Shown here in pieces: positions 45,746 to 48,425 of a DNA stretch of 64,000 nt (the stretch's first letter is position 1; every line of letters begins with the position of its first letter). A model generated the notes under the pieces. It was not told where the DNA came from, ran no database searches, and worked only from the letters and a program-made list of their open reading frames with translations. The position numbers were made by a program, and so were the translations under genes. Source of the DNA: Minisyncoccota bacterium (lineage in GTDB: Bacteria > Patescibacteriota > Minisyncoccia > Phycocordibacterales > UBA2100); the NCBI GenBank assembly GCA_022842645.1, contig JALHPE010000002.1:65569-129568 (forward strand), given 5' to 3'.

Positions 45746-47365
45746 ATGAAAAATGAGGTTGCATTGCAAGACCTCGTTGTTCGGACAATGCCGGGCAGAA
45801 TCATTGCTGCGGCCTTGATCGCCAGCATGTTTCTCCCGCAGGGATTGTTGGTTGCAGAAGAAGTTGGGGCGGAGCAATCAGTCGAAACAGCCTCTTCAGA
45901 GGGTCTTGAAGGGGGTGGAGGCGAAATGTCTCTTCTCTTGGGTGAATCAGCAATTCCAGACTCATATCTCTTCGACATAGATAATCTGTTGAGAAATTCA
46001 CGCATTGATGAAAGCTCGGGTGCATTCACCTATGCTATTCCAATCGTTATACCGCCCGGACGCAACGAGATGCAACCTGAGTTGGTGCTGACATATAGTA
46101 GCCAAAGAGAGGAGGATCAACATATAGCGGGATATGGGTGGAATATCCCGCTTCCGTTTATTGAACGTCAAAACAAGATCGGTGTAGAGAATCTTTTTAG
46201 TACGAATATTATTTTTTCGTCAATTTCCGGCGAATTAGCCACAACATCAAACGAGAGTGTATTTTTTGCGAAGTCGGACGATGGATCGTTTACGAAATAC
46301 GAATATGCATCCTCAACAAACCAATGGACGGCAAAAACTAAAGATGGGCATGTTTACAAATTTGGATACGCAACAACATCACAGGTCTTTAGCGTGTCTA
46401 CCACCACACATGTTTCTCGCTGGATTATTGATGAGGAACGTGACACAAACAGCAACTACATCAAGTATGAATATTTTAAAGACAATAGCTTTGCATACCC
46501 GGCTAAGATTACATATACCGGAAACGGAACGACAACGGGTTTATTCACCGTTGAATTTAACCGTGAATCGCGCCCAGATAGTGCCACTTCATCGGTTACA
46601 TCTTTTAAAACAGCAGCTCGGTATCGCCTCAATGAAATCGTGGCCTCTATCGAAGGGCAGTGGGTGCGTAAGTACCAGCTTGCGTATACAGCGGCGGACA
46701 ATGATCGACGATCGTTGCTGCAGTCTGTCACGGAATCTGGCCGTACCGAGATTGGGAGTACGACGACTACGTTTCCCGCAACGACGTTCTCATACAAGAC
46801 AGCAATACCCGGCTGGTCTACAACCACTTCTAACTTTGCGCTACCTCAAAATATTCGAAAAAATGATTACGGTGACGCGGGGACACGTATTGCGGACGTG
46901 AATGGGGATGCGCTCATCGACATTGTTTTTGCACCCGTCGGTACCACGACGAAGATTTATATCAACAATGGAACTGGCTGGACATATAATGCTTCGTGGC
47001 AATTTCCCGTCTCCGTACAGAGCCCCGATGGTGGAGATGGAGGCGTTCGTCTGGTCGATCTCAATGGTGACGGGCTAACCGATATCGTGAAGAGGGAGAC
47101 GCTCTACCCGTCCTTTGAGCAAATAATCCTTCAATACTTAAATACTGGCTCTGGGTGGGCAACTACAACTAACTGGCAGTTACCACAGCATCTTATTCAT
47201 CCCGAAACGCGAGAGGATTTGGGTGTACGTCTTGCCGATGTAAACGGAGATGGGCTCACCGATATTCTTATTGGCCAGTACAATCAAAACGCACAAATAG
47301 TAGATTCAAAAATCTATCTTAATAGCGGGCATCGCCAATGGCTCCACCGTTATGCTCCGCTGTGA
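45746..47365 (+). CDS. Rhs-family polymorphic toxin, N-terminal part (signal/TM, SpvB-like region, FG-GAP-like repeats); continues in +1 frame after a frameshift near 47327-47330
   Basis: Repeated 'DVNGDGLTDI'/'DLNGDGLTDIV'/'DVNGDALIDIV' motifs and YD-like strands; ends 'HRQWLHRYAPL*' out of frame with the downstream core. Confidence 0.7.
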   Translation: MKNEVALQDLVVRTMPGRIIAAALIASMFLPQGLLVAEEVGAEQSVETASSEGLEGGGGEMSLLLGESAIPDSYLFDIDNLLRNSRIDESSGAFTYAIPIVIPPGRNEMQPELVLTYSSQREEDQHIAGYGWNIPLPFIERQNKIGVENLFSTNIIFSSISGELATTSNESVFFAKSDDGSFTKYEYASSTNQWTAKTKDGHVYKFGYATTSQVFSVSTTTHVSRWIIDEERDTNSNYIKYEYFKDNSFAYPAKITYTGNGTTTGLFTVEFNRESRPDSATSSVTSFKTAARYRLNEIVASIEGQWVRKYQLAYTAADNDRRSLLQSVTESGRTEIGSTTTTFPATTFSYKTAIPGWSTTTSNFALPQNIRKNDYGDAGTRIADVNGDALIDIVFAPVGTTTKIYINNGTGWTYNASWQFPVSVQSPDGGDGGVRLVDLNGDGLTDIVKRETLYPSFEQIILQYLNTGSGWATTTNWQLPQHLIHPETREDLGVRLADVNGDGLTDILIGQYNQNAQIVDSKIYLNSGHRQWLHRYAPL

Positions 47366-48425
47366 TGGGAGCACTATAACCGCACTCGATGACGGTGCAA
47401 CCCTTCGCACGGTCACCGACACCTCCATCACGAGTGCGGGCTACGCTGGTATGGGCATGGGGGCAATCATCACCGCAACTGACGACACTTCGAGCCAAAA
47501 GCTGGATACCTTCACGGTGCAAACGCTTTCTTCTTCGTCTGGTGTGAGTACCCGGTATGTGCATGGGGATCATTTGGGTGGCATGAACGTGACAAGTGAC
47601 GAGAACGGTATAGGAGATGAGGTTGTCGACTTCCATCCTTATGGCACCGAGCGCCTGCGCTTGGGGGAGACACAAGATCAGCGGCAGTATGCGGGGACTG
47701 AGCGGGATACGGAGTCAAATCTTGACTACATGGTGAATCGGTACTATTCGAGTATGAGTGGGCAGTTTTTGGGGCAGGATGCAGTGCACCGGGCTTTGGG
47801 TAATTCTAAGGAAATCCAAGGATTCGCGGGGAGGGGAATGGAAGACATTCTTTTGGATCCTCAGCTCATGAACTCATACGCATATGGTCGGGGAAATCCT
47901 GTGCGATTCAAAGATCCGGAAGGCAATATTGCAGTCGTGCCTTTCATCGCACTTGCGTACTCACTGTACTCTGGCGCGCAACTGGCAATTGATGCCTATG
48001 ACGTATACCAAACAAACTACAAGTACGGCGATGTATTTTCACAGGCGGAAAAGAATCAAACGAATTTTAAAGCAGGATATGACTTTGTTCTAACCGCAAC
48101 TGGTGCAAAAATCGGACGCGACCTTGGGAAAGCCGCAGAAGTTGGGTTCGACACGCTGACCTCTGGAATGGATGTTATCGACACTTATTTCAGCGAGCAA
48201 GCTTACAGACATTACAACGCCAATCGCAATACGAACCATAGCCAGGTCGTACGAGGTTCAAATTCGTATCAACAGAGCACTCCAGGCGGAACCTCAAATG
48301 CATACGCACCCTCAAATCAAGGTGTAAATCAAAACTACAATCAACTCGTTAATCAACTGAGTCAAATCGTATCAACGTTGCAATCGTATGTGTCGAGTTT
48401 ATCAGGTGATAAGAATAAAAAATAA
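47352..48425 (+). CDS. Rhs-family polymorphic toxin, C-terminal part: RHS repeat-associated core ending 'KDPEGN' followed by an unrecognised about 170-aa toxin domain
   Basis: 'RYVHGDHLGGMNVTSDENGIGDEVVDFHPYGTERL ... YAGTERDTESNLDYMVNRYY ... NSYAYGRGNPVRFKDPEGN' matches the RHS core consensus; frame 0 is open back to 47304. Confidence 0.75.
   Translation: MLRCDGSTITALDDGATLRTVTDTSITSAGYAGMGMGAIITATDDTSSQKLDTFTVQTLSSSSGVSTRYVHGDHLGGMNVTSDENGIGDEVVDFHPYGTERLRLGETQDQRQYAGTERDTESNLDYMVNRYYSSMSGQFLGQDAVHRALGNSKEIQGFAGRGMEDILLDPQLMNSYAYGRGNPVRFKDPEGNIAVVPFIALAYSLYSGAQLAIDAYDVYQTNYKYGDVFSQAEKNQTNFKAGYDFVLTATGAKIGRDLGKAAEVGFDTLTSGMDVIDTYFSEQAYRHYNANRNTNHSQVVRGSNSYQQSTPGGTSNAYAPSNQGVNQNYNQLVNQLSQIVSTLQSYVSSLSGDKNKK

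Follow-up and report, generated by a model that had tools for sequence, protein, structure and literature searches.

The window analysed here, a 64,000-nucleotide stretch of DNA from a probable CPR/Patescibacteria organism, carries an Rhs locus inside a cell-wall gene cluster, between ftsW and murG. The locus consists of a 5' gene fragment (ORF-N), an overlapping reading frame with an Rhs-associated core and a toxin region (ORF-C), a small candidate immunity gene, and two pieces of a lectin-like domain, here called JR, that share a 75-nt repeat (Table 1). Between 45.3 and 49.1 kb, promoter and terminator sites are no more numerous than in shuffled sequence.

Table 1. Features of the Rhs locus, in order of position within the window.
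Feature	Position	Strand	Basis
ORF-N, 5' fragment of a giant TcB/Rhs-type gene	45746..47365	+	Pfam and homologue alignment
Junction AGCGGGC	47324..47330	+	direct sequence reading
JR fragment 1, profile positions 142-216 of 219	47325..47549	+	hmmsearch, E 1.2e-28
Repeat copy R1, 75 nt	47328..47402	+	sequence comparison with R2
ORF-C	47352..48425	+	357 aa from the first ATG of the frame
Candidate immunity gene, 74 aa	48429..48653	+	ORF list and translation
JR fragment 2, profile positions 97-168	48665..48880	+	hmmsearch, E 1.6e-25
Repeat copy R2, 75 nt; where fragment 2 overlaps with fragment 1	48803..48877	+	sequence comparison with R1

ORF-N encodes 539 aa from an ATG that is preceded, at 9 nt, by an AGGA motif; its frame is open further back, to a TTG at 45674. 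The product combines an N-terminal hydrophobic signal or anchor with a SpvB domain (Pfam, E 1.7e-16), FG-GAP repeats (FG-GAP_3, E 1.1e-14) and the first ~40 positions of TcdB_toxin_midN (positions 7-46 of 181). Alignment with 15 homologues places the end of homology at ...IYLNSG, where the homologues go on with xGW... and more blades; the left flank is thus broken inside an FG-GAP blade. The last 12 codons of ORF-N (HRQWLHRYAPL and the stop) are out-of-frame read-through into the next segment. Pfam reports no RHS_repeat or YD-shell match (PF05593, PF25023) in either ORF-N or ORF-C.

In ORF-C, the tail of the JR domain is followed by the Rhs-associated core, the sequence ...NPVRFKDPEGN and a C-terminal toxin with a hydrophobic helix at its start. 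The core, at about nt 47634-47924 (residues 111-207 of the frame that starts at 47304), matches TIGR03696 with an E of 1.5e-11 and 44.7 bits, above the cut-off of 32.5. No signal peptide was found in ORF-C, nor an SD-like motif upstream of it. Homologues of the toxin region include P0002 (42% identity) and the C-terminus of a 2,435-aa Saccharibacteria Rhs protein (locus L008), and the exact ORF-C product is called on 14-15 contigs. The 74-aa ORF, which starts 3 nt past the toxin stop and encodes two hydrophobic helices, is a putative immunity gene by its position and size, both typical of Rhs immunity genes (Poole 2011, PMC3150448). Neither the toxin region nor the 74-aa product matches a Pfam or NCBIfam family above threshold. 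Across the toxin gene and the 74-aa ORF the GC content drops to 0.38-0.44, a dip that would be expected if the cassette had been acquired.

How do the two frames meet? The ORF-N frame passes the junction as AAT AGC GGG CAT ... CTG TGA, which translates to ...KIYLNSGHRQWLHRYAPL and stops at 47363-47365. From 47304 onward the +1 frame is open; it reads IQKSILIAGIANGSTVMLRCDGSTITALDDGATLRTV... and stops at 48423-48425. ORF-N and ORF-C thus stand in a +1 relation with an overlap of 14 nt. Removal of one G from the GGG at 47327-47329 creates an unbroken frame of 892 codons (...YLNSGIANGSTVML...), and the initial annotation, which had placed a frameshift at this run and noted the seamless fusion, described the sequence accurately. 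However, deletion of any single base within 47304-47362 fuses both ORFs just as seamlessly; since any +1 overlap can be repaired by removal of one base, such a fusion is no evidence that the two parts were once contiguous.

The bases at the junction belong to two different motifs. On the N side, the GGG codon encodes the near-invariant glycine of the FG-GAP 'LNxG' motif (G528, from the homologue alignment), and on the C side, the GGC codon at 47328-47330 encodes the conserved glycine of the 'G-[IV]-x-[DN]-G' motif of the lectin-like domain, where copy 2 has GGA GGT ATC. C-side homology begins at 47325 in the HMM alignment. The two parental glycine codons share GG, one base out of register, and this overlap looks like a microhomology join. 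The initial annotation had also called the junction recombination-prone, and this holds: the break lies exactly at the left edge of the homology block that a downstream remnant also carries, which makes it a recombination junction.

The JR domain, of ~190 residues, was delineated with a profile built from 156 sequences (219 positions), which was run by hmmsearch against the six-frame translation of the window. Fragment 1, whose start is equivalent to residue 142 of the homologue P0090, retains just the last 5 of 15 strands in the AlphaFold2 model of that protein. Fragment 2 lies within an ORF (48569/48665-48886) that ends 36 nt 5' of murG, is 52% identical to residues 1841-1909 of P0089 and is the remnant of a second, diverged cassette. 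Profile positions 1-96 were found nowhere in the 64-kb window. When fragment 2 and fragment 1 are placed in that order in a composite profile, 323 proteins match it as a single contiguous domain. In the P0090 model (pLDDT 94.5) the domain forms one compact 15-strand sandwich, so that the break falls within a fold unit. No Pfam family matches the domain above threshold. In Foldseek comparisons its fold matches CBM66, phage receptor-binding domains, glucanases and galectins (probability 1.00, TM 0.56-0.70); the predicted beta-sandwich fold is that of concanavalin-A/galectin-like carbohydrate-binding modules, including CBM66 and the receptor-binding domains of mycobacteriophages Douge (gp20) and TM4 (gp23), whereas sequence identity to these is just 12-16%. 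None of 84 related loci contained a JR domain, which was later found only in L091 and L092. As an observation in its own right, JR is a widespread, unannotated, lectin-like domain that directly precedes the Rhs core in some giant Rhs proteins of CPR bacteria; this is a modest side finding.

That a downstream orphan copy reads the same peptide, as initially reported, is confirmed: R1 and R2 are identical in 23 of 25 residues and in 83% of their 75 nt (0 such pairs are expected by chance), with at most 27 identical bases in a row. Their differences comprise 11 synonymous and 2 non-synonymous changes (pN/pS 0.06, p = 1e-5), and this coding-type divergence indicates that the copies diverged within functional genes, as different cassettes. 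A recent tandem duplication or target-site duplication is ruled out by the same figures, the copies being 17% diverged at a pN/pS of 0.06. The pair is likewise no DGR template/variable repeat (TR/VR) pair: the 13 mismatches comprise transitions and transversions of all kinds, fall mostly in third codon positions and are not A-specific, with A involved in only 3 (counted in R1) or 1 (counted in R2).

Intact relatives are single ORFs of 2,176, 2,435, 1,991 and >2,610 aa. On these, ORF-N aligns with residues ~110-555 and ORF-C with residues ~1,680-2,370, and ~1,300-2,000 residues, the whole YD shell among them, are missing from the window. The assumption that one extra G is all that interrupts a complete Rhs gene is therefore not supported, as the left flank breaks off in mid-blade and the right flank enters an unrelated lectin-like domain two-thirds of the way along it. 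Only one comparator, P0037 plus P0089 on contig L092, also carries the lectin-like domain, and ORF-C starts at the equivalent of P0089 residue 1884. P0089 has ~40 residues of final YD strands between this domain and the core, which the window cassette does not have, so its parent may not have resembled P0089. No close relative with an intact parental allele was found: a metagenome scan with ORF-N yielded relatives of 41-42% identity only, the best relative in a genome scan was 44% identical, and a search with fragment 2 returned nothing. The deletion is thus deduced from distant homologues (34-56% identity).

The search for N-terminal homologues listed no protein longer than 920 aa, though relatives of at least 2,000 aa exist, so its many short matches are no evidence that truncated forms are the norm. 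A recurrent and meaningful split after the FG-GAP region was considered and ruled out, the other short N-terminal homologues being heterogeneous products of decay or error: an ISL3 insertion interrupts P0022, a 1.2-kb gap separates P0021 from a 1,631-aa RHS ORF downstream, and P0037/P0089 shows a plain 1-nt frameshift on a contig at 2.88x coverage. Small proteins that consist of a signal peptide, Rhs core and toxin, with no YD shell, also occur in related bacteria (P0003, P0004, P0009).

Could the junction nevertheless be a slip, a switch or an artefact? We consider it very probable that the site is a scar of recombination and deletion, left by ordinary gene decay, and neither a homopolymer slip nor a switch. 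An assembly chimera or homopolymer error might be suspected in a metagenome-derived contig with a 75-nt repeat nearby. Yet six Logan assemblies, from six different SRA runs, agree with the window base for base (100% identity over 2.9-13 kb, junction included), although they stem from one project and one clonal population, in which minority length variants among the reads are possible. With no more than 27 identical bases in a row, and nothing left of the junction repeated in the window, no shared k-mer could have caused a misjoin. An assembly fault is accordingly highly improbable, and the break is a real lesion rather than a sequencing artefact. A true insertion of one G into a naturally short Rhs-type protein of ~892 aa, so that G removal would restore the ancestor, is compatible with the clean ORF obtained after the deletion and with the shell-less Rhs-core proteins of related bacteria, which have signal peptides of their own. 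We nonetheless regard it as very unlikely. The join lies inside an FG-GAP blade and inside a beta-sandwich of which a third of the strands are left, the architecture occurs in none of the 71 N-terminal, 10 C-terminal and 323 domain homologues, and a collection of 15 billion proteins does not contain the fused 892-aa sequence. Least credible of all, and extremely improbable in our estimate, is a switch for a fused toxin, whether by programmed +1 ribosomal frameshifting or by a phase-variable G tract. The two ORFs do overlap in a +1 relation, and the stretch in which both frames are open includes AAAAA (47308-47312) and GGG; against this, GGG is present in all six independent assemblies, no homologue has the arrangement and hence no slippery site is conserved, and no SD-like stimulator was seen upstream. 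The fused product, moreover, would not be colinear with the 2,000-2,400-aa relatives, and it would be shell-less with two broken domains. The G tracts of contingency loci must be far longer than 3 nt to slip at a useful rate; with a run this short and no length variants seen in the six assemblies, phase variation is implausible.

A further reading concerns the origin of the repeat and is compatible with a scar. The 1,475-bp unit from R1 to just before R2 contains the tail of the lectin domain, core, toxin, immunity gene and front of the lectin domain, and may have entered as a circular or tandem cassette through a single Campbell-type crossover within the 75-nt block. Fragment 2 placed before fragment 1 rebuilds one domain, the permutation expected from a crossover with a circle, and each edge of the repeat falls where a non-homologous flank begins, so that the permuted domain pieces would be explained. 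We still think such an entry unlikely: R1 and R2 are just 83% identical, no recombinase gene is present among the called neighbours, a second example was searched for and not found, and an orphan array truncated twice, independently, would look the same with no new mechanism. Somewhat more doubtful still is the broader proposal that, in these CPR-type bacteria, the lectin-like segment serves as a homology handle for the exchange of ~1.5-kb toxin-immunity cassettes via circular or tandem intermediates. If true, the permuted order of fragment 1 and fragment 2 would be the footprint of an integration and not of two random deletions, and the locus would be a snapshot of an active cassette-exchange site within the essential ftsW-murG cluster.

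We return to the scar as the preferred reading. The data show the anatomy of the locus, its missing sequence, the mid-domain breakpoints, the reproducible sequence and the coding-type divergence of the repeats; in which order and by what mechanism this state arose, and what the locus does today, we infer as follows. A giant ancestral Rhs/TcB-TcC-type toxin gene would have stood between ftsW and murG, with a likely layout of signal peptide, SpvB, FG-GAP propeller, TcdB-mid, YD shell, lectin-like domain, Rhs core and toxin; an immunity gene would have followed it 3', and then at least one diverged orphan cassette. The gene may then have been broken in mid-blade within its FG-GAP region, at codon ~527, and joined illegitimately at the GG microhomology to a toxin cassette, whose lectin-like domain it entered at position ~142; this join would have been one base off the reading frame and would have removed the entire shell. 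A second truncation would have reduced another cassette to positions 97-168 of its lectin-like domain, just 5' of murG. What remains is a stump of the N-terminus, a 216-nt domain remnant and, as an orphan-like unit with no means of delivery, the core-toxin ORF with its putative immunity gene. Since ORF-N and ORF-C contain no further stops, either the event is recent or the pieces are still under selection. Toxin encapsulation and export by this locus are no longer possible; most plausibly, selection keeps the immunity gene, and possibly the toxin is expressed internally at a low level, as a toxin-antitoxin-like pair with it. Removal of the G would yield a chimera of two half-domains with no shell. 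Among the four explanations first offered, a pseudogenising mutation came nearest, but the lesion is a large deletion or an illegitimate join and not a +1 G; similarly, the +1 frame does run into an Rhs-associated core of ~100 residues, which is not the core of a complete gene.

A scar of this kind is a known type of event. Orphan toxin/immunity modules that retain upstream conserved sequence, together with large deletions, have been described for CDI and Rhs systems (PMC3150448), and cases in which a large deletion has linked a main gene to an orphan anew are documented for such loci. Like orphan rhs-CT/rhsI and cdiA-CT/cdiI modules, known along with C-terminal displacement from Rhs/CDI loci (Poole et al. 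2011, PMC3150448; Starsta et al. 2020, PMC7043789), the locus has a 5'-truncated toxin gene that keeps a conserved upstream stretch, here JR position 142 onward and the core, ahead of the toxin. It also resembles them in having neither an evident signal for translation initiation nor its own delivery domain, in the small ORF directly 3' (the candidate immunity gene), in a further fragment with a conserved block, and in the lower GC of the toxin/immunity part. Unlike in those systems, no intact main rhs gene is present but only the stump joined out of frame; the R1/R2 block is shared with another remnant rather than with the main gene; this block belongs to a lectin-like domain 5' of the core and not to the core/PxxxxDPxGL region; and the locus interrupts the ftsW-murG cluster of a probable CPR/Patescibacteria host. 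With the TcB/TcC-type Rhs toxins (for example the 2,176-2,435-aa proteins in L007/L008, and P0037+P0089) it has in common the SpvB plus FG-GAP N-terminus (34-44% identity), the Rhs-associated core, a DPxG-type core end and then a variable toxin, which in L008 is of the same family. In contrast to these toxins, the locus has neither the TcdB-mid domains nor any of the YD shell, so the defining cocoon cannot form, and the remaining parts lie in different frames. The core still precedes the toxin, as in a full-length Rhs protein, but no single ORF joins delivery domain, shell, core and toxin, and the repaired fusion would be shell-less as well.

The main value of these findings lies in annotation, as it is tempting to 'repair' such a locus into a frameshifted Rhs toxin or to flag it as a programmed frameshift or phase switch, and neither applies. 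Homology profiles on both sides of a 'frameshift' can separate a deletion scar from a slip. Specialists in polymorphic toxins may take note of the lectin-like domain before the Rhs core and of the shell-less proteins that combine signal peptide, Rhs core and toxin. In the genome itself, this locus should be scored as one that retains an immunity gene and a toxin fragment with no delivery part, but no Rhs toxin that could be delivered.

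Does a single G split an otherwise whole Rhs toxin gene, as the initial annotation of this stretch held? The Rhs locus is set within an otherwise ordinary cell-division and cell-wall cluster (ftsW to murG, window 44310-50061), in which ftsW and murG are normally neighbours. Direct reading confirms the sequence as annotated: ORF-N, the 5' fragment of a giant Rhs/TcB-type gene, runs into a stop, the +1 frame is open, and deletion of one G from GGG fuses the two into an uninterrupted frame of 892 codons. The downstream copy of the junction peptide-coding stretch is likewise present (R2; R1 is the copy at the junction). 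AGGA lies 9 nt 5' of the ORF-N ATG, and the first canonical start in the +1 frame, ATG 47352, yields a 357-aa product (ORF-C). The nearest named relatives in homologue and genome searches are Kaiserbacteria, Paceibacterota and Saccharibacteria, which makes a CPR/Patescibacteria host probable. Beyond the locus, the murG-gltX intergenic region (window 50052-50209) contains a 60-nt imperfect inverted repeat, 70% complementary with a 38-nt spacer, made of AAATCCTAA/TTAGGATTT-like units.

Features of the Rhs locus and its flanks, in window positions
Feature	Position	Strand	Remarks
ftsW	44310-45422		gene calls; on the other side of the Rhs locus from murG
ORF-N	ATG 45746 to TGA 47363-47365	+	frame open from TTG 45674; ends ...KIYLNSGHRQWLHRYAPL*
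+1 frame	open from 47304 to 48425	+	reads IQKSILIAGIANGSTVMLRCDGSTITALDDGATLRTV...
GGG	47327-47329	+	site of frame change
75-nt direct repeat (R1, R2)	47328-47402 and 48803-48877		83% identical; sole such repeat in window
Fragment 1 of lectin-like domain	47325-47549		profile positions 142-216; E 1e-28
Fragment 2 of lectin-like domain	48665-48880		profile positions 97-168; E 2e-25
74-aa ORF	starts 3 bases past the ORF-C stop	+	two hydrophobic helices
murG	48916-50061		gene calls; other flank of the Rhs remnant locus

In this clonal population the junction sequence is genuine. The exact 357-aa product is called on 14-15 contigs, and all six Logan assemblies compared, from six SRA runs (SRR28154518, -19, -20, -21, -28 and -31), match the window at 100% identity across 2.9-13 kb, every junction base included. 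Sequence left of the junction is repeated nowhere else in the window and the longest identical run shared by R1 and R2 is 27 bases, so that no shared k-mer could have caused a misjoin. This disposes of an assembly error, one of the options initially entertained.

Are the two reading frames, then, parts of one gene? Comparison with homologous loci, a check that the initial annotation had proposed, shows a join that is not colinear with intact genes. The protein search gave no N-terminal homologue above 920 aa, though genome contigs hold relatives of 2,000-2,600 aa; in a genome scan these intact relatives are single ORFs (L007, 2,176 aa; L008, 2,435; L009, 1,991; L060, >2,610). In alignments to them, ORF-N covers residues ~110-555 and the downstream ORF ~1,680-2,370, and the ~1,300-2,000 residues in between, depending on the comparator, are missing from the window. 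In the relatives both the TcdB-mid domains and the whole of the YD shell fall within this interval. In ORF-N a domain search found SpvB and FG-GAP repeats but, of the 181 positions of TcdB_toxin_midN, only 7-46; neither ORF gave an RHS/YD-repeat match. Aligned with 15 homologues, ORF-N remains homologous as far as ...IYLNSG, where all sufficiently long homologues go on with xGW...P..F and more FG-GAP blades; ORF-N therefore stops inside a blade. With the shell absent, the left break in mid-blade and the right break inside a lectin-like domain, ORF-N and the downstream ORF are not contiguous parts of one gene, and a single-base split is not supported.

The intact arrangement is found in one giant Rhs protein, P0089 (2,316 aa); a 644-aa N-terminal piece, P0037, lies ahead of it on its contig. 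P0089 consists of YD repeats, a Gly-rich linker, the full lectin-like domain, a linker, the last YD strands, the Rhs core and the toxin; the downstream ORF of the window starts at the equivalent of residue 1884. P0037 and P0089 (L092:6083-14951; ena ERZ25070530 ctg134042_2.88x) represent a giant Rhs gene in two ORFs with a 17-nt overlap, its frame broken within an FG-GAP repeat by an extra T in GACAAATGGGTATAA, around L092:8005. Unlike the window halves, these halves are truly contiguous, and the extra T may be a sequencing error, coverage being only 2.88x. A recurrent split after FG-GAP was considered and rejected: on long contigs, the other short N-terminal homologues prove to be one gene interrupted by an IS, one with a gap and one with a plain 1-nt frameshift (the 2.88x contig), and reflect heterogeneous decay or error with no shared mechanism.

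The ~75 residues from the junction to the Rhs core have no Pfam match. A two-sequence profile was made by aligning the translation 5' of R2 (48656-48877) with that 3' of R1 (47328-47558), which overlap within the repeat only. It matches 323 proteins (E<=1e-3, best 1e-43; 1.84 billion representative proteins searched), and among the matches listed nearly all form one continuous stretch over profile positions ~8-121. The piece before R2 and the piece after R1 are therefore consecutive parts of one domain. A 219-position profile built from 156 of these matches, run on the six-frame translation of the window, found exactly two fragments, and positions 1-96 are absent from the whole window. The AlphaFold2 model of a 215-aa homologue, P0090 (30 aligned sequences; pLDDT 94.5, pTM 0.90), is a 15-strand beta-sandwich, of which fragment 1 retains only the last five strands. 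Its Foldseek neighbours are CBM66, the receptor-binding domains of mycobacteriophage Douge gp20 and TM4 gp23, beta-glucanases and galectins, and the domain is predicted to adopt a lectin fold of the concanavalin/galectin kind. Against Pfam, nothing exceeds threshold for the domain, the best weak match being 3-keto-disaccharide hydrolase (E 0.02).

The family (P0082-P0230; ~190 residues), with CBM66 and mycobacteriophage receptor-binding domains as its nearest folds, is widespread without having a Pfam family. Tandem copies in giant proteins are frequent (P0083 has three), and in P0082 the domain lies directly past terminal YD-type strands; only P0089 and the window combine it with an Rhs core. 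A 73-aa fragment-2 query gave no candidate in the protein search although P0001 shares several 5-mers, and this negative should be read with care.

How did the two parts meet? The N-side Gly of the FG-GAP 'LNxG' motif, nearly invariant among homologues, is the GGG itself, and the C-side Gly of 'G-[IV]-x-[DN]-G', conserved in the lectin-like family, is GGC 47328-47330 (GGT in R2). The two codons share GG, one base out of register. The junction looks like a 2-nt microhomology join; the microhomology would extend to at most 5 nt had the right-hand parent also contributed the preceding GCG. A 'G run' would then sit exactly at the frame change because overlapping Gly codons were joined there.

Of the 13 differences between R1 and R2, 11 are synonymous and 2 non-synonymous when read in the lectin-domain frame (pN/pS 0.06; probability of such bias under neutrality 1e-5), and in either other frame each differing codon is non-synonymous. 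The copies therefore diverged while both were in functional genes, which rules out a recent duplication or target-site duplication; the mismatch pattern rules out a DGR template/variable pair. R1 and R2 each derive from a different cassette.

Orphan toxin/immunity modules downstream of a main gene keep varying stretches of conserved upstream sequence, and a large deletion loading an orphan onto the main gene is documented (PMC3150448). The locus in the window fits a decayed form of such an arrangement. An illegitimate join would have deleted from mid FG-GAP through position 141 of one cassette's lectin-like domain; in the next cassette, a second truncation would have taken all that followed position 168 of the domain, to a point 36 nt short of murG. 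The domain pieces would also come to lie in this permuted order if a circular or tandem cassette of 1,475 bp had integrated by a single crossover, which is less probable and needs more assumptions than two truncations. A role for the lectin-domain block as the handle in cassette exchange strikes us as very improbable.

Could the frame change instead be functional, as was also suggested? A phase-variable switch through the G tract is implausible given a 3-nt run, far too short, and the lack of any length variant among the six assemblies. Programmed +1 frameshifting would produce a broken propeller blade joined to a third of a beta-sandwich, without a shell; the arrangement is seen in no homologue, a stimulatory element is not apparent, and the repaired 892-aa sequence was not found in 15 billion proteins. 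A naturally short Rhs protein has precedents in small proteins with signal peptide, Rhs core and toxin (P0003, P0004 and P0009), but all three lack this junction and the lectin-domain tail. Each has a signal peptide of its own, a short N-terminal region, the Rhs-associated core and a variable toxin without a YD shell, and in CPR bacteria such proteins may make up a class of secreted 'core-only' Rhs toxins that lack the shell; P0003 (377 aa; Kaiserbacteria) occurs on 44 contigs.

The downstream frame matches the Rhs-associated core TIGR03696 over the curated cut-off (E 1.5e-11). After ...NPVRFKDPEGN, which closes the core, come ~165 C-terminal residues opening with a hydrophobic helix. The 74-aa ORF occupies the usual position of an immunity gene and is a candidate for one. 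GC is 0.38-0.44 over the toxin C-terminus and this ORF (window 48000-48800) and ~0.52 in flanking housekeeping genes and the lectin/core part, consistent with a horizontally acquired toxin-immunity cassette. Neither a signal peptide nor an SD-like motif was found for the downstream ORF. With shell and delivery domain both absent, this locus has no means of deploying the toxin. By analogy, the candidate immunity gene may be retained against relatives still firing this toxin, or toxin and immunity protein may be expressed internally and work as a toxin-antitoxin module, as a Salmonella orphan-Rhs study reports (PMC7043789). Of the initial interpretation, a pseudogenising recombination junction stands: recombination has left a genuine pseudogenising scar here, in an Rhs locus that retains orphan-type remnants, a fresh instance of a well-known kind of event.
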